46,996 bases of DNA from an uncultured Clostridia bacterium (GTDB lineage: Bacteria; Bacillota; Clostridia; Christensenellales; UBA1242): contig CAMLSW010000002.1 of NCBI GenBank assembly GCA_946484195.1, forward strand, positions 1 to 46,996. The letters are read 5' to 3'. The notes below the pieces were generated by a model that made no database searches, was not told the origin of the DNA, and worked only from the letters and a program-made list of their open reading frames with translations. A program made the translations under genes and the position numbers. Shown here piece by piece: positions 8,541 to 27,749 of this stretch (position 1 is the first letter of the stretch; every line of letters starts with the position of its first letter).

Positions 8541-9140
8541 ATGTTGAAAAAGATCAATGAGAGTTTGTTAAATAGTATACTTGAGTATATAAAGCTGTTT
8601 CAGCTTGAGAAGGGGAGAAGTCCGACTCAACGCGAGATAATGAAGGCGCTTAATATATCAAGTCTTTCGCTTGTCAGCCGATACGTCAAAATACTTGAGG
8701 ATAATAGAAGTATCAAAAGAGATACAAACGGCACTATTGATATTCAATTTAACGTCAACTTAAGCCAATCAATTTTAGCCCCAGTGGTTGGTGAGGTTAG
8801 ATGTGGTGAGCCCATATTTGCACAAGAAAACATAGAGTCTGTTTATCGACTTCCTACAGAAATCTTTGGACGTGACAATCTCTTTTTGTTGCACGCCAAG
8901 GGAGACAGTATGCTAGATGTAGGAATAAGGGAAGGAGATTTGCTTGTTGTCAAAAAATGTGAAACAGCAGAAAATGGCGACATTGTTGTGGCACTTCTTG
9001 ATGACTCGGCAACAGTCAAGAGGTTCTACAAGAGAAAAGACTATGTTGTTTTGCACCCCGAAAACGATAAATATGACGACATTATCACAAAAGATGTAAA
9101 AATTTTAGGAATTGTCAAGCAGTATATTCATAGTTTGTAA
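8541..9140 (+). CDS. lexA: LexA-type transcriptional repressor (S24 peptidase)
   Basis: N-terminal winged HTH, cleavage-site region 'VRCGEPI', Ser nucleophile 'GDSM' and Lys in 'ATVKRF'. Confidence 0.85.
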   Translation: MLKKINESLLNSILEYIKLFQLEKGRSPTQREIMKALNISSLSLVSRYVKILEDNRSIKRDTNGTIDIQFNVNLSQSILAPVVGEVRCGEPIFAQENIESVYRLPTEIFGRDNLFLLHAKGDSMLDVGIREGDLLVVKKCETAENGDIVVALLDDSATVKRFYKRKDYVVLHPENDKYDDIITKDVKILGIVKQYIHSL

Positions 9141-9151
9141 GGAGGCAATTT

Positions 9152-9340
9152 GTGAAATTAAAATTATTTTGCCCGCATTGTGGTAGGTGTTTAGGTGAGT
9201 GTATAGCCTCAGATGACACAAGTGATTGTAGAGTGCTAGTCAAACCGCCAATGAAATCAAAAAGAAAGCGTTTTATACATAATATGAAGTGTTTAAAATG
9301 CAAAAATGAGATTTTTATAGTAATGGAGCTCAAAGATTGA
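9152..9340 (+). CDS. small zinc-ribbon protein (Mu Com-like?)
   Basis: GTG start 6 nt after AAGGAGG and 12 nt after the lexA stop. Two CxxC pairs ('CPHC','CLKC') in 62 aa. Confidence 0.55.
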   Translation: MKLKLFCPHCGRCLGECIASDDTSDCRVLVKPPMKSKRKRFIHNMKCLKCKNEIFIVMELKD

Positions 9341-9494
9341 TTAAATGTAGACTTGCTTTTAATAAAAAGCTTAAAAATTGCTATAAAACAAGGTTTTCAA
9401 TAATAGAAAGTATAAAATTTTATAAATAGTCGACATAGCGAACCCAGCGTTCCAAAAGACATTTTTGTTTTTTGTTACGCTGGTTTTTTAATAT

Positions 9495-9521
9495 AAGCCA
9501 GCATTATGCTGGCTTTTTTTG
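9495..9521 (+). terminator. rho-independent terminator (second of two tandem hairpins)
   Basis: aagccagca / tgctggctt stem followed by a T7 run. A weaker hairpin plus T-run lies at 9444-9489. Confidence 0.8.
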
Positions 9522-9643
9522 TTGTGCTTTTATGTTTTTGTGCGGAAATTTAAAAATTTTTTAAAAAACTTTTTTCGTTCGGTCAAATGCTGTCCGATCG
9601 GCAATTGTAGACTTTAAATATCTTAAAAGGAGGTGGGTAGCGA

Positions 9644-9988
9644 ATGGACATTCGTAGCTGTAGCATTACGGCTGATATTTTGAATGTTCTTACTGACGGC
9701 AAAAAGCATACAATAGCTGAAATTGCTCAAATAGTCGAAGTCAGTGAAAAGACAGTAAGACGTCACATTCAGTCGCTTTCATATCGCTATCCAATAACCA
9801 CTTTTAAGGGAGGCATTGAAAGAGGAGGTGTAATACTTGAAAAGCAATATATTTATCAAGGCAGGGTAAGGACAAAAGACGAAATAGATGTAATTGTCGA
9901 GGCATTAAAATGTTATCAAAAAGAATGCAGTGATGTCGGCAAACAAAGCCTAATAAAATCATTGATTGAGGAGTACAGAATGGATTGA
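9644..9988 (+). CDS. HTH domain DNA-binding protein (114 aa)
   Basis: 'HTIAEIAQIVEVSEKTVRRHIQSL' helix-turn-helix. AGGAGG RBS. Confidence 0.7.
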   Translation: MDIRSCSITADILNVLTDGKKHTIAEIAQIVEVSEKTVRRHIQSLSYRYPITTFKGGIERGGVILEKQYIYQGRVRTKDEIDVIVEALKCYQKECSDVGKQSLIKSLIEEYRMD

Positions 9989-9998
9989 ATGCCAGCAT

Positions 9999-10029
9999 CC
10001 CCACAAATTTCACAATTTGCGGGGACCCC
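9999..10029. repeat. hairpin element H1
   Basis: ccccacaaatt-tcac-aatttgcgggg plus 'acccc'. Identical 31 nt at 10200-10230. Confidence 0.85.
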
Positions 10030-10199
10030 AAAAAATGCAACACGAAACTAGGCAGAAGCGCAGGGTGCGATGCTTAACAATTTAGTAGATTTTATTATGT
10101 AAAATTTGTATTTCCATCTCAAAGTCGCGCTGGCGTCGCAAACTACGCTCAGTCTAAGTTGCAGTAGCAACTCTAGCATTATCGCTCGTTTGCTCCTTT

Positions 10200-10230
10200 C
10201 CCCACAAATTTCACAATTTGCGGGGACCCC
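10200..10230. repeat. hairpin element H2 (identical to H1)
   Basis: Same 31 nt as 9999-10029. Confidence 0.85.
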
Positions 10231-10260
10231 GAGAAACTTGCATTTTCGTTTGGCGCGAGA

Positions 10261-10300
10261 ACACCCCTAAAAATCTAACGATTTTCAGGGAAACCCAAAG
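10261..10300. repeat. hairpin element H3 with flanks, present as a clean 40-bp indel
   Basis: ccctaaaaatc-taac-gattttcaggg plus 'aaaccc'. 'gcattttcgtttggcgcgaga' is followed directly by 'gaggcgaaaac' at 10544-10574, but by this 40-bp block at 10240-10311. Confidence 0.8.
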
Positions 10301-10394
10301 GAGGCGAAAACAAATGTTAGGGCGTAGCTTTTCGCTTTAAAAAAGCGAAAACAAGCAACAATGCAGTTTTCGCCTCTGGTGCCGAAGACGGGAG
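10301..10394. repeat. 94-bp direct repeat, copy 1 (tRNA-Leu 3' 18 nt plus 76 nt of downstream flank)
   Basis: Reads identically to 10564-10657. It ends at '..gacgggag', i.e. inside the T-loop of the tRNA sequence. Confidence 0.85.
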
Positions 10395-10400
10395 CCTTCA

Positions 10401-10431
10401 CCCTTAAAATTTGACAATTTTAAGGGAACCC
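10401..10431. repeat. hairpin element H4
   Basis: cccttaaaatt-tgac-aattttaaggg (perfect 11-bp stem) plus 'aaccc'. It abuts the duplicated tRNA-Leu 3' segment. Confidence 0.8.
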
Positions 10432-10563
10432 GAACGAAGAAAAAATCAATATGTAGTTTTTGTTAATATAAAAATAGATACATTTAAACCGCGTGGCGCA
10501 ATAAAGTCGAACTTTAAAAACAAAGTCGCGCAAAATGCGAATGCATTTTCGTTTGGCGCGAGA

Positions 10564-10657
10564 GAGGCGAAAACAAATGTTAGGGCGTAGCTTTTCGCTT
10601 TAAAAAAGCGAAAACAAGCAACAATGCAGTTTTCGCCTCTGGTGCCGAAGACGGGAG
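10564..10657. repeat. 94-bp direct repeat, copy 2 (overlaps the genuine tRNA-Leu 3' end)
   Basis: Identical to 10301-10394 by eye. Confidence 0.85.
10602..10636 (-). terminator. intrinsic terminator of tRNA-Leu
   Basis: On the minus strand: gcgaaaac..gttttcgc followed by T6, starting 4 nt after the CCA. Confidence 0.7.
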
Positions 10658-10725
10658 TCGAACCCGTATGAAGTTGCCCTCGACAGATTTTGAGTCTGTT
10701 GCGTCTGCCATTCCGCCACTTCGGC
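10640..10725 (-). tRNA. tRNA-Leu (anticodon CAA), class II with long variable arm, CCA encoded
   Basis: The reverse complement reads gccgaag-tg-gcggaatggcagacgc-a-acaga CTCAAAA tctgt-cgagggcaacttcat-acggg ttcgact cccgt-cttcggc-a-cca. Confidence 0.92.
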
Positions 10726-10978
10726 TTAAATTAAGTTACTTTTTAATTCTATCATAACTTGAAAAAATTTACAACTACATTTATAAAATTTTTTATTTTT
10801 TATCTATTTTTGTGCGAAAAAGAGAAATTATTTTATCAAAAATAGGTAAAAACTACAACCCCATATTTCAAAAAATAAAAAATTGTCAAACTTTTTCAAT
10901 GTCGAAAAAGGTCGAAAAAGTTATAAATTTATCTAATTTTATCAAATTTTTGGTCATTTTAATCCAAAAAAGTTATAA

Positions 10979-11000
10979 TTTTGTAAAATTTTTTACAAAA
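10979..11000. promoter_or_regulatory. perfect palindrome ttttgtaaaa-tt-ttttacaaaa (operator candidate)
   Basis: 10-bp arms, about 25 bp upstream of the -35 of the 11078 gene promoter. Confidence 0.35.
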
Positions 11001-11025
11001 ATATACAAAATGTTGGCACAAAGAA

Positions 11026-11055
11026 TTGACTATGGCATTTGGGTGAATTTATAAT
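11026..11055 (+). promoter_or_regulatory. promoter of the sigma-r4-like gene
   Basis: TTGACT, 18-nt spacer, TATAAT. Confidence 0.55.
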
Positions 11056-11077
11056 TCGTGTTAAAAGGAGAGAAAAT

Positions 11078-11590
11078 ATGAAATTAAATATATGGACTAA
11101 AACTACATTATACATTTACAAATATCTTGATACAATAGCTGATGCCATCGATAAACTCATAGAGAGGCAGGCATTAAATTCATTTTATTATAATCAAGCG
11201 AGCGCAGCCTCAAGTGATGTAGAGACTGTTTCAAATAAAATCATAGAACTTTCTCAGAGGAAAATCAACCTTATAAATATTAAGGTTGCAATAGACCAAT
11301 CACTTATGGAGATGCCACAAGAGCTTGCTCAACTTTTGATTGAGAGGTATATGGATGGCGAGCGTGGCGAAGATATTGCACTTAGACATAATTTTACTTT
11401 TAGAACATATTTTAGAAGGCTGTTAAAAGCAGAAGATTTTTTCTCTGCGGTTATGGCGAGTAAGGGCATTGATGAAAAAACTTTAAGCCAAAACCTTAAG
11501 CAAGAAAAGTGGGTAGTTGATATTTACAAATCGTTTTTAAGTAGAAAAATAGGGGAAGAGGCGAGCGAAGAGCAACTTATGATGGCTTAG
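11078..11590 (+). CDS. sigma-70 region-4-like / ArpU-RinA-type phage transcriptional regulator (170 aa)
   Basis: ATG at 11078 after AAAGGAGAG. 'RKINLINIKVAIDQSL..PQELAQLLIERYMDGERGEDIALRHNFTFRTYFRRL' matches the pattern of small phage sigma-like activators. Confidence 0.55.
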   Translation: MKLNIWTKTTLYIYKYLDTIADAIDKLIERQALNSFYYNQASAASSDVETVSNKIIELSQRKINLINIKVAIDQSLMEMPQELAQLLIERYMDGERGEDIALRHNFTFRTYFRRLLKAEDFFSAVMASKGIDEKTLSQNLKQEKWVVDIYKSFLSRKIGEEASEEQLMMA

Positions 11591-12384
11591 TTTAAGTCGC
11601 TATCGTCGAATTCGTAGTAGTCGCCGTGTCTTTTCTTTTTAGGTATTTTCTCTGTCACTTTGCCTAGTTTTTCTTTTGCAAAAGATGGCTTAATAAGAAG
11701 ATAGATGACAACCACACACGGCAGGCTGACACCGATTATAATAAAGGTCATAGCAACAGAAGATAGACCTTGCGGGTTTGTTGACGCGGTAAAATTAGGA
11801 TTTTCTACAACTGTAAAATATTCATTGTTTTCTGTGATGTAAAGCTTGTCACAAAAGACCGAGTAAACATAACCAAAGGTGTCATTTGAAAGCTTGCTAT
11901 AATACCAAAGATTGCTCTTGTCTGGTATGGAGTCGCCGTAGGCATATCCATAAAATACAACCGACTCTGTGAGGTAGGGGATATACGCCATCTCATATTG
12001 GTCTTGAAGGTAGGGCTGTGAGTACATATTCATACCATTTAATGCAAAAATTCTAAAATAGAGGGTGGGATAGGGCATAGAGGGCGTGCCTTCCATCGCA
12101 ACAACTTCGCTTTTCTTGACATAACCAAATATGTCGTCATACTGGGCATAATAAAAATCTTGATTTTCATCGTTAAGCAGTAAGACAAAATAGCTCTCAG
12201 GAATAGAAAAAAGTTGATAGTCACTGCTGTCAATAGGCTCTGAATAAAAATAGATGTCCTCTTGCTCTATTTTGGCAAAATATTTGCGGTCGGCTCGAGA
12301 AGTTGCGGGGGTGCTTGAAAATATGACAAAGGTCAAACAAAAAATTAAAGGTAATATTAATAATGATGACATTGATTTTCTCAT
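11587..12384 (-). CDS. secreted/membrane-anchored protein with two SH3b-like repeats and a C-terminal TM helix
   Basis: Signal peptide, 'GYVKKSEV' and 'GYVYSVF' SH3b-like ends, TM segment 'AMTFIIIGVSLPCVVVIYLLI', basic tail. It converges on the previous gene, and their stop codons overlap. Confidence 0.7.
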   Translation of the reverse strand: MRKSMSSLLILPLIFCLTFVIFSSTPATSRADRKYFAKIEQEDIYFYSEPIDSSDYQLFSIPESYFVLLLNDENQDFYYAQYDDIFGYVKKSEVVAMEGTPSMPYPTLYFRIFALNGMNMYSQPYLQDQYEMAYIPYLTESVVFYGYAYGDSIPDKSNLWYYSKLSNDTFGYVYSVFCDKLYITENNEYFTVVENPNFTASTNPQGLSSVAMTFIIIGVSLPCVVVIYLLIKPSFAKEKLGKVTEKIPKKKRHGDYYEFDDSDLN

Positions 12385-12471
12385 AGTTTCATTTTAAATT
12401 TTTAATTTGCGCTATGCAAGAAATAATTTGTCGATAAATTTAATTTTTAAAGGTATTTTGGTGGTTTAATT

Positions 12472-13902
12472 ATGAGTGATTTAATGTATAAACTTAAACT
12501 TGTGAAAAATGAGCTTGAAAAAAGAAAAAAGGATGATTTTTTGTCCCGCTATAATACAGGTGAAAAAATACATAAAAAACAACTTGAATTTCACAAATGT
12601 AACAAGAAAAATAGGTGGGTTTTTGGTGGCAATAGAAGTGGTAAAACCGAGTGTGGCGCCGTTGAGACAATCTATCTTGCCCGTGGCATACATCCATATA
12701 AAAAGAATAAGCCGATTTCTTGCTGGGTGGTGTCTTTATCTAAACAAGTGCAAAGAGATGTTGCGCAAGAAAAAATTTTGCACTATCTGCGAAAAGATTG
12801 GATAGAAAAAGTTGTTATGGCAAGCGGTAGGTCAGACAGCGCCGAGAGTGGTATCATTGATTTTATCTTGGTTAGAAATGTGTTTGGGTCGCTAAGTAAG
12901 ATTGGCTTTAAAAGTTGCGACCAAGGCAGAGAGAAGTTTCAAGGCTCATCTCTCGATTTTGTTTGGTTTGACGAAGAACCGCCTTATGATATCTATCAAG
13001 AGTGCCGTATGCGTGTGCTTGACAAAAAAGGTATGATTTTTGGCACGATGACACCGCTTAAAGGACTTACCTGGGTTTACAATGAAATTTATTTGAACGA
13101 GAATAATGATAGCGAGGTGTGGCATATCGAAATGGAGTGGGCGGATAACCCCTACCTTGATAAAGATGAGATTGAAGCAATGACTAAATCACTCTCACAA
13201 GATGAACTTGAAAGCAGAAGGTATGGCAAGTTTATGCAGTGTGGGGGGCTTGTCTATAGCGAATTTGATGAAAACGTAAATGTAATTGACCCTTTCGACG
13301 TTCCAAAAGAGTGGCAAGATAATATCTCCATAGACCCCGGACTCAATAATCCGCTCTCTGCGCATTGGTATTGCGAGGATTATGATGGCAATGTCTATGT
13401 GGTTGCCGAACACTATGCTCAAGGCAAAGATGTCTACTATCACGCAAATAAAATTAAAGAGATTTGTCAAAAATTAGATTGGCATTATACAAATGGCAAG
13501 ATTTCGGCACTGATTGATAGCGCCGCTATGCAAAGGACCCTTGCAAGCTCAAAAAGCGTGGTAGATTTGTTCTATGAAAATGATATTTTGGTCAATCCTA
13601 GGGTAAATAAAGATATGTTCAGCGGGATAAACACGGTTAAGAGATACTTAAAAGACGGCGAAGGTAAACCGCATCTATTTATTTTTAGAAACTGTACAAA
13701 CCTTATTAGAGAGATAAAATCTTATTGGTGGGGTGATAACGACCTTCCTATTAAAAGAGATGACCACTGCCTAGATGAGATGAGGTATTACCTTATGGAT
13801 AAACAGCTTACTCTTAGAATAAAGGATAAAAAGAACGAGATACAAAAGGATAAACAGCGCCTCATCAAGCAACTAAAAACGAGTAAGTATCATTTAAAGT
13901 AG
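12472..13902 (+). CDS. phage terminase large subunit (TerL), apparently intact
   Basis: Walker A 'GGNRSGKT', Walker B 'DFVWFDEE', nuclease-domain motifs 'SIDPG' and 'DDHCLDEMRY'. 476 aa. Confidence 0.85.
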   Translation: MSDLMYKLKLVKNELEKRKKDDFLSRYNTGEKIHKKQLEFHKCNKKNRWVFGGNRSGKTECGAVETIYLARGIHPYKKNKPISCWVVSLSKQVQRDVAQEKILHYLRKDWIEKVVMASGRSDSAESGIIDFILVRNVFGSLSKIGFKSCDQGREKFQGSSLDFVWFDEEPPYDIYQECRMRVLDKKGMIFGTMTPLKGLTWVYNEIYLNENNDSEVWHIEMEWADNPYLDKDEIEAMTKSLSQDELESRRYGKFMQCGGLVYSEFDENVNVIDPFDVPKEWQDNISIDPGLNNPLSAHWYCEDYDGNVYVVAEHYAQGKDVYYHANKIKEICQKLDWHYTNGKISALIDSAAMQRTLASSKSVVDLFYENDILVNPRVNKDMFSGINTVKRYLKDGEGKPHLFIFRNCTNLIREIKSYWWGDNDLPIKRDDHCLDEMRYYLMDKQLTLRIKDKKNEIQKDKQRLIKQLKTSKYHLK

Positions 13903-13974
13903 AATTTTTTATCAATATAAATAAGACAAATTATTTTATTAATAAAATAAATCCATAATGTGGTGGCTTTTCGT

Positions 13975-14002
13975 TTGTAAAATTTTTACTTTTTGGTATA
14001 AT
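13975..14002 (+). promoter_or_regulatory. promoter (extended -10) of the 14027 gene
   Basis: TTGTAA, 16-nt spacer ending in TGG, TATAAT. Confidence 0.55.
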
Positions 14003-14026
14003 AAAGTAAGAAAAGGGGTGTATCAT

Positions 14027-14623
14027 ATGAAAAGTCTGAAAGCAAAATTGCTTACAGTTATATCGACATTCATCCTTGCAATTGCTATGCTTATTGTCGG
14101 TGTTTGGGCGGTAGCAGAGAGCCAGCATATAAACCTAAGCGGAAGTGTTGACTTTACAATAGCCGATAATAGCCTATATATTAAAGATATACAAAGAAGA
14201 GATGCAGGCTCAACTGAACAAGGTACAACAATAGAAAATTTTATGCCAGGCTTTGTTCAAAGTGATTTTCAGTTGAATTTAGGGTCGTTTGATGCCACAA
14301 CAAATTTTGATTTAGTAATAGACATTGTAAATACCTCTACAACGATATATGAAGTTAATACAAACATAACAAATGGTTCAGTTAGCATAAGTGGAAGAAT
14401 AGAGGGAGACGGAGTACCAATAGTAGATGTGGCGACTGCCGACATTTCAGGGCAAATCATTTTAAGCGTAACAGTTACTTTGGCAGGACAAATAATCCTA
14501 GACCAAGTTGACATACCACTGACCGAGTATATTCCAATTGTTTATGACTACTTTACTTTTGTAATAAATGACGATAATCAAACAGTAACGATTTTTAATA
14601 ACAAAAATGTTATTTGCAAATAA
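14027..14623 (+). CDS. secreted protein; stand-alone (truncated?) paralog of the N-terminal domain of the 19048 LRR protein
   Basis: ATG at 14027 after AAAAGGGG. 'MKSLKAKLL..LIVGVWAVAESQHINLSGSVDFTI' aligns with the 19048 product over about 190 aa. It ends 'FTFVINDDNQTVTIFNN', where the paralog continues into LRRs. Confidence 0.75.
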   Translation: MKSLKAKLLTVISTFILAIAMLIVGVWAVAESQHINLSGSVDFTIADNSLYIKDIQRRDAGSTEQGTTIENFMPGFVQSDFQLNLGSFDATTNFDLVIDIVNTSTTIYEVNTNITNGSVSISGRIEGDGVPIVDVATADISGQIILSVTVTLAGQIILDQVDIPLTEYIPIVYDYFTFVINDDNQTVTIFNNKNVICK

Positions 14624-14962
14624 AAGTTGGTGGCGTTAAAAGTTAATTTTGTTGATATGTACGTTATAAATTGTACTTAATGTAATTATATAAAGCTATA
14701 TGTAACTAATATTATTATTTTTAATTATTAACAACTAAAACAAAAAGAAGAGAGATTAATTGTATTTTTGCAAAATCGCCCTTCTTTTTTTGATATGTTT
14801 ATATGCTAATATGAAAAAATATTGAGATAAAATAAAAAATTATTGATTAAAAAATATTAATAATTAAAATATTTTAAAAATATTTGCAAAAAATATAATT
14901 ATATGTTAAATTAAATATAGGATTTTACTTTACAATTTTGCCTGCATTTTTTAAGGTGAGTT

Positions 14963-17326
14963 ATGAAAAAAGTTTTTGTTTTTCTTTTTGCATTTTTGTT
15001 TTGTCTATCGGGTGGCATATTATTGACATCTTCTTTTAATATGGACAAGGTGGCAAGTGCCGAAGATATCAACTATAGTGAAATAAATGTATCAAATGGT
15101 CAACAACTGCTTTCAACGCTTAGCGCAAACTCAACCTACAACAATCCAAATGTAAAAATTGTTTTAACAGATGATATAGACCTTGAGGGGATAGACCTTT
15201 CTCCTGCCTATCTTGAAAGGCGGGTATTTACCGGCTTTTTTGAGGGCAATGGCTATGAAGTTTCAAACTTTACTCTTTCATCAAACACAAATGTCTACGG
15301 TCTTATACCTTATGCCTCTGGAGCAATTTTTCAAAACATAAGGATAACTGGCGCGGTAAGTTTTTCTTTCACTGAAAATAGCCTTCCTATCTATGCCGGC
15401 GTTTTGGTAGGTCAAGGCGAGAATGTGACGATTAAAAATTGCGAGCTTTACAATGTTACCGTGAATATGGTTGACGAGGGTGGCGAGCAGGTTGAAGAGC
15501 GTAGTGAGCAGACTATAAGCATACCTGTCAGTTCAAATTTGACCTTTGGTGGTATTATAGGGCTTGCAACAAGTTATTCAAGCGCACTTGAGTCAAGTTT
15601 GACAACACTCCAAAATTGCATAAACTATTATGACCTTCAAATCACATTGAACACGAATAGCCGCATTGCAGTTGGCGGTATTGTTGGCGCTCTCAACAGT
15701 GGAAGTAGGGTTATAAACTGCCTAAACTATGGCAATATCAATATTACAAAGTCCTCTCAAGTGACTGAGGCGAGCATTTCAAATCAGTACATTGGCGGTA
15801 TAGCAGGAGAGATAAGTGGCAATTCAACCACAATCAAAAACACAGCTTATGGCGGTGAAGTTTCTTCTAATATTACAGACGCAAACTTCTACGCCGGTAC
15901 ACTTGTTGGCTACTTAAACTGCGCACAGGCAAGCACTAATTACAATGTCAACTTTTCATATTGGTCACAAAGTGCTCTTAACTATTATGGTACTGGTTAT
16001 AGTATCACATCAGATTATTTGTCTCAGCAACCTGTAATTAATAGAGCGTTTTTATCCGATACCAGCCATTTTGATAGCGTAGAGCCTAGTTTTGACTTTG
16101 ACTATGATTTTACTATGATTGATGGCGAAATTTTACTCCAAAGATTTCAAGATTATACATTAGAATTTAATCCGTCTCTAGATAATGGAAATATTATATC
16201 AAGTGCAACTTTTGAAAGCGACAACCAATCTGCCACAAGCAGACCAATAAATGTTCGCTATGGCGAAGAAATAACAATTACTATAACTTTTGCCGATGAT
16301 TATGTGGGCTACTATAAACTATCTTCAACTACAGCGCCAATTTCAACTACGACAGGTCAGTTGTCAGCTGAGTACTACACAGCAACTCCACTTACAAGCT
16401 CGCGAGGTATTTATGGGTACGAGATTTTACTAACCGCGTGTGATAGAACCGATGGCGTATACTCCTTTACCTTAGATGAAGAGCAATATCTTTGCGAATT
16501 TGAAATTTCCGAGCAGGCAGACGCTGAAAGTCAAGGACTGCTTAGGAGAATAGGAGCAGATCGCTCAACTTCTCATATAAGTTTCCCATTTTCATATAGA
16601 AGTAGGTCGTTAAGCGTTAGAGCAGAGGGTAGTGGCGTCTATAGTTTCTCGCATTGGGAATTGTATTATAGAGATTCTAGCGGACAGTTTACCGAGCAAG
16701 TTTCTTTAAATGACGAAATTAGAACAAGCGCGGTAGTAACTGTTGAGTATGGTACAGCGCCTTGGACAGAAGAGTTTAAGCTTGTTGCATACTTCACCGA
16801 TGAAGAGGCTGTTTTGCTAACAATAGGGAACTATTCAAGAGAGGCGGTAAGTTCAATTACTGTTGATGAAACACCATACACTGGAGAAGAGATGAGAATT
16901 CCGCCAAATGGTACAATCACCCTTGAGATTACAACAAATTCTGGTTATGTTATGGATGTTGATGCTTTCATAGTTTTAATTCAAAGGTTATATGGTGACA
17001 ATACAACCGACGGTCTAGTATCTGACCCAATTGTCAATGAGGGCACAGGGCAAACGACCTATAGATTTAGAATTAATATGACCTATCTGCGTCCAAATAT
17101 TACCGACAATCAACTTCCACTTACTTTGATTATCACTGAAGATGGTTCGGCGAATGGCGATGATCTGCTATGGGTTTATATCGTTGTACCAATAGTTGCC
17201 GTTTTGATAATAGGTTTAATTATCTTCTTTATCATCAGACATCGTAGAGGTGGTGGCGGTGGTAAAAAGGCTAAAGCCGTCAAAGAGAGCGGAAAGAAAG
17301 AAAATTATAGAGATTATTATGTATAA
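14963..17326 (+). CDS. large surface protein with GLUG-type repeats, signal peptide and C-terminal TM anchor
   Basis: 787 aa. Repeated 'GGIIG/GGIVG/GGIAG' motifs. C-terminal TM segment followed by 'RHRRGGGGGKK'. Confidence 0.8.
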   Translation: MKKVFVFLFAFLFCLSGGILLTSSFNMDKVASAEDINYSEINVSNGQQLLSTLSANSTYNNPNVKIVLTDDIDLEGIDLSPAYLERRVFTGFFEGNGYEVSNFTLSSNTNVYGLIPYASGAIFQNIRITGAVSFSFTENSLPIYAGVLVGQGENVTIKNCELYNVTVNMVDEGGEQVEERSEQTISIPVSSNLTFGGIIGLATSYSSALESSLTTLQNCINYYDLQITLNTNSRIAVGGIVGALNSGSRVINCLNYGNINITKSSQVTEASISNQYIGGIAGEISGNSTTIKNTAYGGEVSSNITDANFYAGTLVGYLNCAQASTNYNVNFSYWSQSALNYYGTGYSITSDYLSQQPVINRAFLSDTSHFDSVEPSFDFDYDFTMIDGEILLQRFQDYTLEFNPSLDNGNIISSATFESDNQSATSRPINVRYGEEITITITFADDYVGYYKLSSTTAPISTTTGQLSAEYYTATPLTSSRGIYGYEILLTACDRTDGVYSFTLDEEQYLCEFEISEQADAESQGLLRRIGADRSTSHISFPFSYRSRSLSVRAEGSGVYSFSHWELYYRDSSGQFTEQVSLNDEIRTSAVVTVEYGTAPWTEEFKLVAYFTDEEAVLLTIGNYSREAVSSITVDETPYTGEEMRIPPNGTITLEITTNSGYVMDVDAFIVLIQRLYGDNTTDGLVSDPIVNEGTGQTTYRFRINMTYLRPNITDNQLPLTLIITEDGSANGDDLLWVYIVVPIVAVLIIGLIIFFIIRHRRGGGGGKKAKAVKESGKKENYRDYYV

Positions 17327-19047: not shown

Positions 19048-20460
19048 ATGAAAAGTTTAAGGATAAAATTATTTACAGGCATATCAATGTTTGTAGTTGC
19101 GCTTGCCTTACTCATTGTTGGTGTATGGGCGGTAGGTGAAACGCAGCACATCAATCTAAGTGGAAGTGTAAACTTTACAATATCTGATGACACGCTTTAC
19201 ATAAAGGATATACGTATTAGAGAGTCGAATGACTTAACAGGACAGGGCACAACAATTGATAATTTTTTGCCTGGATTTGTAAATGGTGACATTGATATAG
19301 ATTTAGGTACACTATCAGCAGACACAAGTTTTAGTTTACTTTTTGATGTTATAAACACTTCAGCAATACCTTATCAAGCAAGCACAACCTCCACTATTTC
19401 GAATGCAGTATTATCAGTAAGTGGAACCGTAGTTGGGGACGGAATAGAACCTAGCACTATAACCTCTGACACACAGTCATCAGGTACAATAATATTAACT
19501 GTTACAGCGTCTAGTGCAGGACTTGTAAATTTAGATGGGATAGTCATCACTCTTGAGCAATTGGTTTATGAAAATTTTGTTTTTGATGGGAATGGGGCTT
19601 TGCTAGGGTATTCAGGCTCAGATGCAGTTGTTGAGATACCTGCCTCTTACTCAATTATTGGTGAACCGGAAGATAAGAGTGTATATATCGAGAGCAGAGA
19701 TTTTCTTTATGAAAATATTCTTAATGATAATTATGACTTTTATAAATTAACAAATTATAAAATTATTAATGATAGCAGTGAATATAACTTTTCTGATATT
19801 GAAGAGTTGCTTTTTCACGAAAATTCTGAAGATTATTTCCCTTGCACAATTGAGTATAAAGATTTTTCAAATGTAACTTTTGTTTATGGAGATAATTATA
19901 TTGTAGATAAAGTTATAGGAGCGTTCAACTATAATCAAAATATACAAGGTGTAATATTACCTGCTAATATAAAAAGTATTGGAGCATTTTCATTTTCGTA
20001 TTGTGCAAATTTAAAAAACATAGATATTCCTGAAGGTGTAGAATACATTGGGATGGAAGCGTTTGGTGGAAGTGGATTAACATATGTTTCATTACCTAAT
20101 AATTTAATTGAAATAGGAGAAACTGCTTTTGTAAATTGTGTAGATTTGATAAATATAGATTTTAGCAAATGTAATGGTTTGGAAAAAATTGGTTATGGTG
20201 CATTTTCAGCCGATTATAGTTTGACATCAATAGATTTAAGTCAATGCACATTAATTAACTTTATAGATACCTTTGCATTTTATGATTGTTCAAATTTAAC
20301 TTCTTTTAAAATAGGTTCATCTACTCCACCATCTTTAGAAGTTGATGCATTTCTTATGGTCAATTCAGATTTCCAAATACAGGTTCCTTCTGCAAGCGTA
20401 AATGCTTATAAGTCAGCAAGTGGTTGGTCGTCCTACGCAAGCCAAATTGTTGGTTATTAA
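19048..20460 (+). CDS. surface protein: N-terminal signal/anchor plus beta-rich domain fused to BspA-type leucine-rich repeats
   Basis: 470 aa. The C-terminal half has repeated 'IP..V..IG..AF..C..L..I' units. AAAGGAGA RBS. Confidence 0.85.
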   Translation: MKSLRIKLFTGISMFVVALALLIVGVWAVGETQHINLSGSVNFTISDDTLYIKDIRIRESNDLTGQGTTIDNFLPGFVNGDIDIDLGTLSADTSFSLLFDVINTSAIPYQASTTSTISNAVLSVSGTVVGDGIEPSTITSDTQSSGTIILTVTASSAGLVNLDGIVITLEQLVYENFVFDGNGALLGYSGSDAVVEIPASYSIIGEPEDKSVYIESRDFLYENILNDNYDFYKLTNYKIINDSSEYNFSDIEELLFHENSEDYFPCTIEYKDFSNVTFVYGDNYIVDKVIGAFNYNQNIQGVILPANIKSIGAFSFSYCANLKNIDIPEGVEYIGMEAFGGSGLTYVSLPNNLIEIGETAFVNCVDLINIDFSKCNGLEKIGYGAFSADYSLTSIDLSQCTLINFIDTFAFYDCSNLTSFKIGSSTPPSLEVDAFLMVNSDFQIQVPSASVNAYKSASGWSSYASQIVGY

Positions 20461-25679: not shown

Positions 25680-27749
25680 ATGGAAGACAATAATTTAAAC
25701 GGACAGCCACCTATTAGCGATGAAGAGTATGTCTATGATAAAGAGGGGATAGACAGAGTTATTGCTCAATTTAAAAATGATAATGGTAAGAAAGATAAGA
25801 AAAAAGATAAAGGAAATAACAATTATGATTATAATGAAGGCAAGGAAAGAAAGTTTAGTTTAAAAAGCTTTTTGATTGCATTTTTTATCATCATTGTACT
25901 TGCAGTTGCAGGCTTTTGTATATATTATTTTGCCTTTAGAGAAGAGGATGAGACACCTTCTAATGTGCTAAGCAACAATGAGGTGCTTGGCACTGTTAGA
26001 GTGCTAGAATCAGAGGGCAGTGGGAACAAAGTTGCAACGGCAATTCCAAACGGCGTTAGTCAGTTTATCGGCTGGACAAAGGGTAGTATGTATGATTCAA
26101 CCATCATATCAGAAGACCCAAGCTTGACTATCGATATTGATGACACATCTACATATTATGCAATATTTAATATGGAAGTTGAACCTTCTTTTACCTATAG
26201 AGGCATAGAGTATTGGCTTTATGAGGACGCTAAGAGGGCTGTAGTTATAGGCAATAGTTTTACAGATGCAATACTTGATATTCCTCGTGTAATATCATTA
26301 ACAGATGGCAACTATCAAGTATACAAAATATCTATGCAGTCGTTTGTTGACAACGATTATATCACAGACATTAGATTGTCAAGGGATATCATAGAAATTG
26401 AAAGCGAGGCATTTGTAAGATGCTCTAACATATCTAATATTGTGATTGACCCGCAAAACCTATATTATACAAGCCCTAGCAACGACTTTATTATAGAAAA
26501 TAGCACCAACAAATTAATTTTAGGACTAAGCACAGTTATTCCTGAAAATGTAACTTCTATTGCTCCAAGTGCATTCAATAGTGCAGATATACCAGAGATG
26601 TTCATACCAGAAGGCATAACAGAAATACCTTATAGATTATTCTATGAAAATAACAATATTGAGCTGGTTACAATTCCGTCTAGCGTTACAGAAATTGGAG
26701 AGTCTGCCTTTGCTAATTGCGCCAATCTCACTACCGTTGTTTTAAATGAAGGCTTGCAGACAATAAATGAAAGAGCGTTCGCCCAAACAAATGTAAATTC
26801 TATCACTATTCCTTCCACTGTAAAGACAATTAAAGATGAAGCGTTCTTAGAGTGCGACAATCTTACAAGTGTTGAATTTGCACAAAATTCTACTCTCGAA
26901 ACTGTTGGTCAGAGAGTGTTTACTAGAACTGCATTTTCGTCTATCACAATACCTGCAAGTATAAAAACAATGGGCAACTATTTGGTTAGCAATAATAGCA
27001 ACTTAAAAAAAGTAATCTTTGAAGACAATAGCCAAATTCAAAACATAGATAGGCAATTTGCAAATGTGGCTAATATTGAAAGCATAGATTTTGGTGATAA
27101 CAACTCATTGTTAACAATTGCAGACTATGCATTTGCTGACTATGGAAGCCTTACAAATGTTGATTTTGGACAAAACAGTAGTTTGTATAGGCTTGGAGAG
27201 GAGTGCTTCAGAGGTTGTGGCATTACAAGCATTGTTTTGCCAGCCACTCTTGCCGAAGTTGGAACTAACACCTTCCTTAATTGCAATGCTTTAACTGCAA
27301 TTACTTTTGAAGATGGAAGCAGGCTTGACACAGTTACAAGCGGTATGTTTTCATATATCACCTCACTCGAGTCAATCGACTTTGGTGACAATAGCAGTGT
27401 AATCGAAATTAGAGAGTCAGCGTTTGAAGGGCTTAGCAACTTGCTAGAGGTTGACTTTGGGCAAAACAGCATATTAAGTAAAATCTATGAAAGCGCATTC
27501 AGTGGAACATCAATAACAAGCATAACAATTCCTGCAAGCGTTGGCTATATTGGTCAAAGCGCGTTTGACTGTGATTATCTTGTATATGCAACCTTTGAAA
27601 GTGAAAAAGGTTATGATATTTATCAAAGAGTTAATGAAGAGCTAGTCAAAGCAACGACGATTGAGTCATCTTCTTTTGCAGACACCTCTGCTATGGCAAA
27701 CAACTTGAAAAACACCTATTGTAACTACGTTTGGATGATTGTTTCATAA
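25680..27749 (+). CDS. membrane-anchored BspA-type leucine-rich-repeat surface protein
   Basis: 689 aa. K/D-rich cytoplasmic N-terminus, one TM helix, then more than 12 'IP.SV..IG..AF..C..L' repeats. Confidence 0.85.
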   Translation: MEDNNLNGQPPISDEEYVYDKEGIDRVIAQFKNDNGKKDKKKDKGNNNYDYNEGKERKFSLKSFLIAFFIIIVLAVAGFCIYYFAFREEDETPSNVLSNNEVLGTVRVLESEGSGNKVATAIPNGVSQFIGWTKGSMYDSTIISEDPSLTIDIDDTSTYYAIFNMEVEPSFTYRGIEYWLYEDAKRAVVIGNSFTDAILDIPRVISLTDGNYQVYKISMQSFVDNDYITDIRLSRDIIEIESEAFVRCSNISNIVIDPQNLYYTSPSNDFIIENSTNKLILGLSTVIPENVTSIAPSAFNSADIPEMFIPEGITEIPYRLFYENNNIELVTIPSSVTEIGESAFANCANLTTVVLNEGLQTINERAFAQTNVNSITIPSTVKTIKDEAFLECDNLTSVEFAQNSTLETVGQRVFTRTAFSSITIPASIKTMGNYLVSNNSNLKKVIFEDNSQIQNIDRQFANVANIESIDFGDNNSLLTIADYAFADYGSLTNVDFGQNSSLYRLGEECFRGCGITSIVLPATLAEVGTNTFLNCNALTAITFEDGSRLDTVTSGMFSYITSLESIDFGDNSSVIEIRESAFEGLSNLLEVDFGQNSILSKIYESAFSGTSITSITIPASVGYIGQSAFDCDYLVYATFESEKGYDIYQRVNEELVKATTIESSSFADTSAMANNLKNTYCNYVWMIVS

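Follow-up and report, generated by a model that had tools for sequence, protein, structure and literature searches.

The stretch of DNA analysed here (the window) comprises 46,996 nucleotides (nt) of an uncultured Clostridia bacterium (contig CAMLSW010000002.1 of assembly GCA_946484195.1). Between a gene for a helix-turn-helix (HTH) protein of 114 amino acids and a gene for tRNA-Leu(CAA), the window carries four short hairpins, H1 to H4, which lie within positions 9999-10431 in a single orientation. H1 starts 10 nt past the stop codon of the HTH gene, and the H4 unit adjoins a tRNA-Leu 3'-end remnant. Elsewhere the window consists of core chromosome, with valS, lepA, ffh, rimM, trmD, genes for gyrase or topoisomerase IV subunits, and others. 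On balance, we lean towards reading the four hairpins as copies of a non-autonomous module of 39-41 nt, resembling repetitive extragenic palindromes (REP) of Proteobacteria and residing in recombining arrays in tRNA trailers.

Each hairpin consists of CCC, 8 bp, a 4-nt loop, 8 bp and GGG, and on the plus strand A(1-3)CCC(C) stands directly 3' of each of the four; H1 and H2 are identical in sequence. These features, together with the common orientation, had been described in an initial annotation made from the letters alone, and the pattern matches confirm them: CCC-N8-TNAC-N8-GGG has exactly four matches in the window, all on the plus strand (Table 1), where dinucleotide-preserving shuffles of the window give a chance expectation of 0.01. 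When a covariance model built from the family was run over all 46,996 bases with filters off, only H1 to H4 were recovered, at 45-59 bits and all on the minus strand, and nothing unrelated exceeded 11 bits. Successive hairpins are spaced by 201, 65 and 136 nt. An identity as intrinsic terminators was rejected, no T run following the hairpins on either strand and a terminator scan being empty at these sites. At the Rfam gathering threshold, tRNA and transfer-messenger RNA (tmRNA) alone were reached in the window and 18 loci, and at E < 10 over positions 9400-11100 nothing relevant to the hairpins was found.

Table 1. Features of the hairpin array and the adjoining tRNA gene, in window coordinates; bit scores of hairpins are those of the covariance model.
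Feature	Position	Strand	Description
H1 with tag	9999..10029	-	26-nt hairpin (9999-10024), unpaired GGGGU tag (10025-10029); 54.7 bits
Promoter-like site in the array, reading towards H1	10094..10122	-	TTGAGA, 17 nt, CATAAT; 10 of 12 positions, consensus scan only
M2 module	10128..10199	-	AAAGGAG, then GCAAAC...GUUUGC stem around an inner hairpin; recurs after hairpins in many loci
H2 with GGGGU tag	10200..10230	-	hairpin (10200-10225) identical to H1; M2 module next on minus strand; 59.4 bits
Trailer module D, second copy (GAGGCGAAAAC...GUUUUCGCCUC), with start of M1	10239..10376	-	interrupted by H3; otherwise 100% identical to 10542-10639
H3 unit, 40 nt	10261..10300	-	CUUUGGGUUU, hairpin (10265-10290), GUGU; 45.1 bits
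tRNA-Leu 3' remnant, last 18 nt (...CUCCCGUCUUCGGCACCA)	10377..10394	-	exact second copy of 10640-10657
H4 unit, 40 nt	10395..10434	-	UUCGGGUU, hairpin (10401-10426), UGAAGG; 50.7 bits
Trailer module D, first copy, directly after tRNA-Leu	10542..10639	-	empty site for H3
tRNA-Leu(CAA)	10640..10725	-	ARAGORN; Rfam tRNA 59.7 bits
Promoter-like site upstream of tRNA-Leu	10746..10774	-	TTGTAA, 17 nt with TG, TAGAAT; consensus scan

The hairpin unit, its fold and its strand

The extent of the unit can be read from a duplicated segment of the window, in which positions 10239-10260 equal 10542-10563 and positions 10301-10394 equal 10564-10657, both at 100% identity. Relative to the empty junction between 10563 and 10564, the H3 unit is a clean 40-nt block, whose boundaries are unambiguous and cannot be shifted, and no target duplication accompanies it; this exact comparison of filled and empty site agrees with the discrete insertion that the initial annotation had proposed. 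Among the further loci compared, which are numbered from L001, such blocks are present or absent at at least six junctions, H3 included, with no target duplication at any of them. Other cases are position 6574 of L015, a doublet in L038, and a leader in L021 with two filled sites, both of which are empty in the homologous L017 leader. Filled and empty sites differ by 39-41 nt for single units and by 78-79 nt for doublets. The apparently mobile unit extends beyond the 26-nt hairpin: a tag precedes the stem, which has 11 bp and closes a 4-nt loop, and a short tail comes last. Its minus-strand sequence is (C/U)GGGGU(U), then CCC(C) N7, N4 and N7 (G)GGG, and ends in UGAU(A) or A(A)AGG... The (C/U)GGGGU(U) tag is found, unpaired, in 29 of 29 aligned members. 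Extra tandem copies occur in L001, L017 and L032, and in L001, L004, L005 and L017 a T-arm remnant is split by the H4 unit (GGGTTCG, unit, CTCCCGTCTTCGGCACCA). The sequences bordering the insertions share no motif (cctc/tctc, tttc/ttgg, agtg/tttt and gcca/ttac). Across the trailers of different tRNAs and species the H3-empty state is the commoner one, and insertion is therefore the likelier direction for H3.

The conservation of the hairpin lies in its structure and not in its sequence, as had been suggested from the paired changes within the window. In 29 distinct members, 8 of the 11 stem pairs vary on both sides. Pairing at 10 or more of the 11 positions was a condition for choosing these members, which are also related by descent, so that their paired fraction is uninformative and their double changes are informative; none of 500 shuffles reached the observed covariation, and slid controls gave 0-1 covarying pairs. 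The three outer C-G pairs are invariant in these members. Position 5, which the initial annotation had recorded as G-U on the minus strand in H1 to H3, is on the tag strand G·U in 25 of the 29; of the other four, two have A-U, one has U-A and one is unpaired there, and G-C does not occur. The loops vary more freely, and two earlier proposals did not survive the wider comparison: the shared tNac loop is not a family feature, as loops differ widely among relatives, and the assignment to the UMAC tetraloop class does not hold across the family.

The functional strand had been considered ambiguous; the evidence now favours the minus (tRNA-sense) strand and largely settles the question. Besides the G·U pair, loops that start with G on the tag strand are found in 21 of 24 distinct Clostridia hairpins, and GNRA loops in 11 of 24 on the minus strand against none on the other. 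The predicted RNA folds are more stable on the minus strand than on the plus strand for H1 and H2 (-21.3 versus -14.4 kcal/mol) and for H3 (-15.5 versus -10.3 kcal/mol), and so are the DNA folds (-10.9 versus -8.1 and -7.8 versus -5.7 kcal/mol). At six Clostridia tRNA loci, 26 of 27 copies are co-oriented with the upstream tRNA; array copies are direct, and inverted pairs are confined to one leader family. The tag strand has no consistent relation to GC skew, and the replication-strand bias expected of IS200/IS605-type elements was not seen. Given the co-orientation with tRNAs and the lack of a relation to GC skew, polarity therefore follows transcription or array construction and not replication.

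Relatives of the module and the arrays that contain it

Strain variants of the locus, taken as contigs encoding exactly the same 114-residue HTH protein, share the order valS, DUF2238, DegV, a LexA-like S24 gene, the HTH gene, the array, tRNA-Leu, an unknown gene and a terminase-like gene. They carry 4-10 hairpin copies, and the HTH gene and the tRNA are 741, 977, 1023 or 1297 nt apart depending on the strain. Further stem variants are present in these strains (CCCCACAAGTT/AACTTGCGGGG and CCCCACAGATT/AATCTGCGGGG), as are further hairpin variants (CCCCACAAGTTATGTAACTTGCGGGG; CCCCACAGATTA(A/T)ACAATCTGCGGGG) and an H1 loop in which TTGC replaces TCAC, the loop at the orthologous H1 site being either GUGA or GCAA, depending on the strain, and of the GNRA type in each case. 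In the metagenome-assembled genome (MAG) that serves as GTDB representative, the H2 site (L017 1951) keeps its flanks and has a compensatory change of an A-U to a G-C pair and a different loop. Assemblies often break at the array, several contigs ending or having gaps inside it, and a locus first taken for a short empty allele (L009) was rejected as a scaffold gap of Ns.

Copies beyond this locus, to which the initial annotation had looked as a check on the family, are present at other loci and in relatives. They were found by a pattern scan of one genome per species, and all hairpin copies are intergenic. The representative MAG of an uncultured Clostridia bacterium (CALVNW01) holds at least six loci on five contigs under a restrictive pattern, with copies 3' of tRNA-Glu(UUC), tRNA-Glu(CUC) and tRNA-Ser and in two intergenic leaders, and in other Clostridia MAGs copies lie downstream of tRNA-Glu and tRNA-Arg. 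Copies with neither a nearby tRNA nor a repeat resembling an attachment site (att) occur in L021, L024, L025 and L030. The stem CCCCGCAAATT/AATTTGTGGGG with a 5' GGGG(U/C) tag is also found outside the Clostridia. In a Patescibacteria MAG, the 3' ends of tRNA-Tyr and of tmRNA are the exact starting points of 105-nt tandem arrays, and there are further copies between tRNA-Thr and tRNA-Ser and an array at a contig end; look-alikes lie 13 nt past a tRNA in an Eremiobacterota MAG and between two tRNAs in a Bacteroidales MAG, and those of a Saccharibacteria MAG and of a second Patescibacteria MAG are distant from tRNAs. Such cross-phylum matches are unlikely to arise by chance, because the search pattern demanded neither the tag nor complementarity at the free positions; the other matches of the scan were ordinary terminators or non-hairpins.

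Searches in other collections added little. The pattern scan of a viral contig collection gave no match, blastn of positions 9989-10640 against phage and plasmid collections detected no similarity, and a metagenome scan for the H1-type stem with non-G loops retrieved three contigs only, all from the Patescibacteria organism already seen. No description of the hairpin family was found in literature searches.

In that Patescibacteria organism (JAHISJ01 / Ga0180007; L045 5970-6260 and 11700-11827; L028, L029, L022, L043 and L044), the 105-nt unit consists of the hairpin and a second long hairpin. The tRNA-Tyr and tmRNA genes at these arrays do not encode CCA, and arrays of opposite orientation bracket an accessory-type segment of about 5 kb with AraC/GyrI-like, peptidase C15 and SBF transporter genes. 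A coding reading of the 105-nt array was rejected: one frame is open through the repeats, but it lacks conservation, and the stem variants would alter the putative protein.

At the Clostridia locus the hairpins are one module type in a larger mosaic array that includes the tRNA-Leu 3'-end remnant, a feature that the initial annotation had missed together with the presence of the last 18 nt of tRNA-Leu inside the duplicated segment (10377-10394 equal to 10640-10657). Module D is a long trailer hairpin placed directly after several different tRNAs, either GAGGCGAAAAC...GUUUUCGCCUC or its counterpart AGAGAAAAAAC...GUUUUUUCUCU; homologous trailers stand at other loci after tRNA-Ser, tRNA-Arg and tRNA-Glu. 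Next after D comes module M1 (CGCGCCAAACG...), followed by one or more hairpin units. For M2, 14 variants were compared (the window and 13 further copies, from L001 to L041): the outer stem is conserved, and the inner hairpin is of two unrelated sequence types, one of which has a GUAA loop and shows C-G replaced by U-A as a compensatory change. M2 might constitute a separate small structured RNA. A consensus structure of the M1-hairpin-M2 unit supports the M2 outer stem only, and the 746-nt minus-strand region folds much more stably than its shuffles (z = -10.2). In L017 the array has a higher-order repeat with a period of 334 nt, and in some strains a canonical terminator stands between the tRNA and the array. 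Coding potential was considered and discarded, the open reading frames (ORFs) that follow the Shine-Dalgarno-like AAAGGAG tail being short and not conserved; a reading of GCAAACGAG... as similar to a tmRNA tag was also dropped, as it has no conserved frame.

An exact 116-nt direct repeat (10239-10394 and 10542-10657, with the one H3 interruption), which includes the last 18 nt of tRNA-Leu and its trailer hairpin, brackets 147 nt containing H4; in L001 its counterpart is a 35-nt repeat bracketing an 87-nt piece with H4. The tRNA-Leu 3' remnant and these repeats look like the product of a Campbell-type or site-specific integration at the tRNA, and in their layout they resemble the footprint that a small element would leave after integrating at the 3' end of the tRNA. 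At L001 11296-11345, and also in L004, L005 and L017, there is an inverted duplication of the tRNA-Leu T-arm (GGGAGTCGAACCC GA GGGTTCG...CTCCC) with the H4 unit in its second half, and inverted T-arm fragments are also found beside tRNA-Glu arrays (L015 and L036).

A conserved leader of about 450 nt (L017 5730-5990; L021 3740-4350, minus strand; L030 4400-4840; L015 6260-6560) precedes paralogues of the secreted protein encoded at 13958-14623 of the window, which itself lacks the leader. Its promoter is near consensus (TTGACA, 17 nt with a G8 run, TAAAAT/TAGAAT); the leader occurs with and without two hairpin units of opposite orientation, and has no Rfam match.

Other genes of the window deserve brief mention. 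A regulator cluster at 8541-9988 comprises a LexA-like S24 peptidase repressor (8541-9140), an ORF of 62 amino acids with two CxxC pairs (9152-9340) and the HTH protein itself, which is HTH_11/DeoR-like (9644-9988). A lone gene resembling a terminase large subunit (Terminase_6N/6C; 12472-13902, with 11039-11590 and 11587-12384) lies within the core chromosome, next to the tRNA-Leu array in all related strains; the ORFs scanned around it (11039-17326) had no Pfam match and no other phage domain was recognised among them, and the gene may have been left behind by a prophage or have become domesticated. Two BspA-type surface proteins with leucine-rich repeats (LRR_5) are encoded at 19048-20460 and 25680-27749, amid housekeeping genes.

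Alternative explanations and known systems

The main rival to a REP-like mobile module, compatible with it and not exclusive of it, is that the hairpins work as RNA within tRNA 3' trailers or small transcripts, for example in processing, stability or protein binding, that selection on this RNA maintains them, and that their spread is only a by-product of trailer recombination. We regard this as possible but less likely. The transcribed strand is the one that has the G·U pair, the GNRA loops and the orientation shared with tRNAs, and on it the adjacent M2 and D modules are structured too; orientation tracks transcription and not replication, promoter-like sites lie upstream, and both loops of the orthologous H1 site are of the GNRA type. 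A dosage-sensitive function would sit oddly, however, with 4-10 copies per locus between strains, and the RNA reading is also difficult to reconcile with the canonical terminator that parts the tRNA from the array in some strains, with homologous leaders that exist both with and without units, with the absence of an Rfam match, and with a polarity relative to the tRNA that differs in other phyla. Another explanation, distinctly unlikely as an account of the whole, takes the cluster as scars accumulated where small elements repeatedly integrated at the tRNA-Leu 3' end, by site-specific or Campbell-type events, and then decayed, similar to cis-mobilizable elements (CIMEs), with the hairpins as parts of the att-proximal arms of those elements. 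The exact 116-nt direct repeat with the tRNA end, the 35-nt repeat around the H4-bearing piece of L001, and the T-arm fragments that adjoin arrays in both orientations speak for it, as does the Patescibacteria repeat unit that begins exactly at the ends of tRNA-Tyr and tmRNA, since the 3' ends of these genes are classic integration targets. It leaves unexplained the 40-nt block indels at junctions unrelated to tRNAs (H3 in module D and the leader copies), the stem covariation and the conserved G·U, and the copies in L021, L024, L025 and L030 far from any tRNA or att-like repeat; furthermore, no integrase was found in the window or in the scanned ORFs beside the Patescibacteria array. An integration-scar origin probably explains the duplication of the tRNA remnant and not the hairpin family.

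Two other explanations fail on several of the features tested. That the palindromes are double-stranded operators for a dimeric protein, either the adjacent HTH protein or the LexA-like repressor, is suggested by the position of these 26-bp inverted repeats next to the two regulator genes, and is very improbable given that the half-sites vary in a compensatory manner with pairing kept, that the asymmetry at position 5 is conserved, that copies exist at many loci and in phyla without the regulator genes, and that an unpaired tag and a tail travel with the hairpin. An origin as degenerate or solitary repeats of the CRISPR type has the least chance of all. The stem base and the 3' UGAU resemble type I-E CRISPR repeats (CCCCGC...GUGGGG, UGAU.., with GUU before), which is a lead only; against it, the spacing is irregular, the repeats are not identical, what would have to be spacers consists of repeated modules, the stem has 11 bp instead of 6-7, and no cas genes or domains are present in the 47 kb, and a CRISPR array was accordingly rejected.

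Among known systems, the module is closest in kind to small palindromic repeats, and it is outside any named family. Like REP sequences and bacterial interspersed mosaic elements (BIMEs) of Proteobacteria, it is a short (20-40 nt) imperfect extragenic palindrome with an unpaired tag at one end, multi-copy, clustered, found downstream of genes, plausibly active as a transcribed hairpin, and conserved in structure more than in sequence (PMC3733652). In the tagged REP superfamilies, one stem end carries GTAG or CGTC as an unpaired motif (PMC3733652), whereas here the tag is GGGG(U). The array copies are moreover mostly direct (26 of 27) and not in inverted pairs as in REP doublets (REPINs) and BIMEs, the preference for tRNA trailers is strong and the density elsewhere low, and the hosts are a Clostridia lineage with look-alikes in Patescibacteria. 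A link to REP-associated tyrosine transposases (RAYTs), raised in the initial annotation, is not supported: besides the GGGG(T) tag and the direct orientation, no RAYT was seen in the window or in domain-scanned flanking ORFs.

With the palindromic elements derived from IS200/IS605 (single-strand 'peel and paste' transposition) the module shares the lack of target duplication and of terminal inverted repeats, as well as a strand-specific imperfect hairpin whose foot bears a short, conserved motif that is unpaired. IS200/IS605-type elements have two different end hairpins and insert 3' of a fixed tetra- or pentanucleotide; the module, in contrast, is a single 40-nt unit with one hairpin and no conserved target, its orientation tracks transcription and not the replication strand, and no TnpA was found in the window or scanned ORFs. 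A miniature transposable element with terminal inverted repeats and a target-site duplication (MITE) was rejected for the absence of such a duplication at every filled and empty junction. CIMEs at tRNA or tmRNA 3' ends resemble the locus in their direct repeats of the tRNA end, tandem remnants downstream and strain-variable content, and would account for the duplicated tRNA remnant and not for the 40-nt hairpin blocks or their covariation; no integrase was found in the window or scanned ORFs. As in the attC sites of integrons, a folded single-stranded structure is conserved over sequence and arrays are formed. The attC sites are 57-141 nt long, with R''/R' core sites (RYYYAAC / GTTRRRY), extrahelical bases and gene cassettes, and they need IntI, unlike the present 40-nt unit, which has no GTTRRRY/RYYYAAC pair, no extrahelical bases and no cassettes, and for which no integrase was found in the window. 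The mobile GC-rich or hairpin elements of organelle genomes, for example those of sponge mitochondria (PMC2800124), offer a lead only. Organelle elements of this sort are tiny hairpin units that spread into intergenic DNA, often near tRNA genes, with no encoded enzyme and no known mechanism there, as here, and they belong to a different genetic system.

Several observations weigh against the REP-like mobile module itself. Most pairs of filled and empty sites may reflect precise deletion instead of insertion. No mobilising enzyme came to light: Pfam searches of the ORFs in the 47-kb window detected no transposase, integrase, reverse transcriptase or cas domain, those of the ORFs beside one Patescibacteria array detected no transposase, integrase, reverse transcriptase or cas domain among housekeeping or accessory genes, and neither RAYT/Y1_Tnp nor IS200/IS605 TnpA was present in the window or the domain-scanned ORFs flanking arrays; beside the other arrays, where ORFs were listed without a domain scan, none resembled a transposase and all had the look of ordinary or accessory genes. 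Outside the cluster the other 46 kb of the window hold no copy, a density far sparser than that of classical REPs. Arrays grow by duplication and gene conversion, hence copies are non-independent and the counts of co-orientation and covariation are inflated, and in Patescibacteria and Eremiobacterota polarity relative to the tRNA varies.

A proposed course of events and its significance

Taking these data together, the REP-like module would belong to a repeat family dispersed in an uncultured lineage of gut Clostridia, and each gain or loss would involve one discrete block and leave no target-site duplication. The module would accumulate in non-coding trailers, immediately downstream of tRNA genes and in the polarity of the tRNA, and be mixed there with D, M1, M2 and the remnants of tRNA 3' ends and T-arms; the arrays would then be reshuffled and expanded by homologous recombination, the 334-nt higher-order repeat being one possible outcome. 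Selection may preserve the hairpin that the tRNA-sense strand forms when single-stranded, be it in a transcript or in non-template DNA that is exposed. The data show the family and its covariation, the strand polarity, block indels at several junctions, the association with tRNA (and tmRNA) genes and strain-dependent array lengths; the agent and the source of the single strand are proposals. Block insertion could be carried out by a trans-acting enzyme working on single-stranded nucleic acid, and the transcription of highly expressed tRNA units might supply the single strand, thereby setting orientation and location.

A bolder and rather improbable extension is that the module represents a new type of miniature mobile hairpin specific for tRNA and tmRNA 3' flanks across distant phyla (Clostridia, Patescibacteria including Saccharibacteria, Eremiobacterota and Bacteroidales), inserting as a 40-nt block with no target duplication, in one case into a T-loop remnant, and with a polarity set by transcription and not by replication. 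If true, it would imply either a mobilising activity on single strands exposed by transcription or on RNA, or a new RNA 'punctuation' for tRNA operons.

To our knowledge, small palindromic repeats are well studied in Proteobacteria and hardly so in uncultured gut Firmicutes or Patescibacteria (candidate phyla radiation). In practical terms, the arrays break metagenome assemblies at tRNA loci, and their strain-specific lengths could act as strain markers. The module described here offers a compact unit, clear filled and empty sites, a strand polarity linked to tRNA transcription, and look-alikes with the same stem beside tRNA or tmRNA genes in very distant phyla; if an enzyme or an RNA-level mechanism moves it, it would be a tractable case of how a mini-element spreads without encoding anything.

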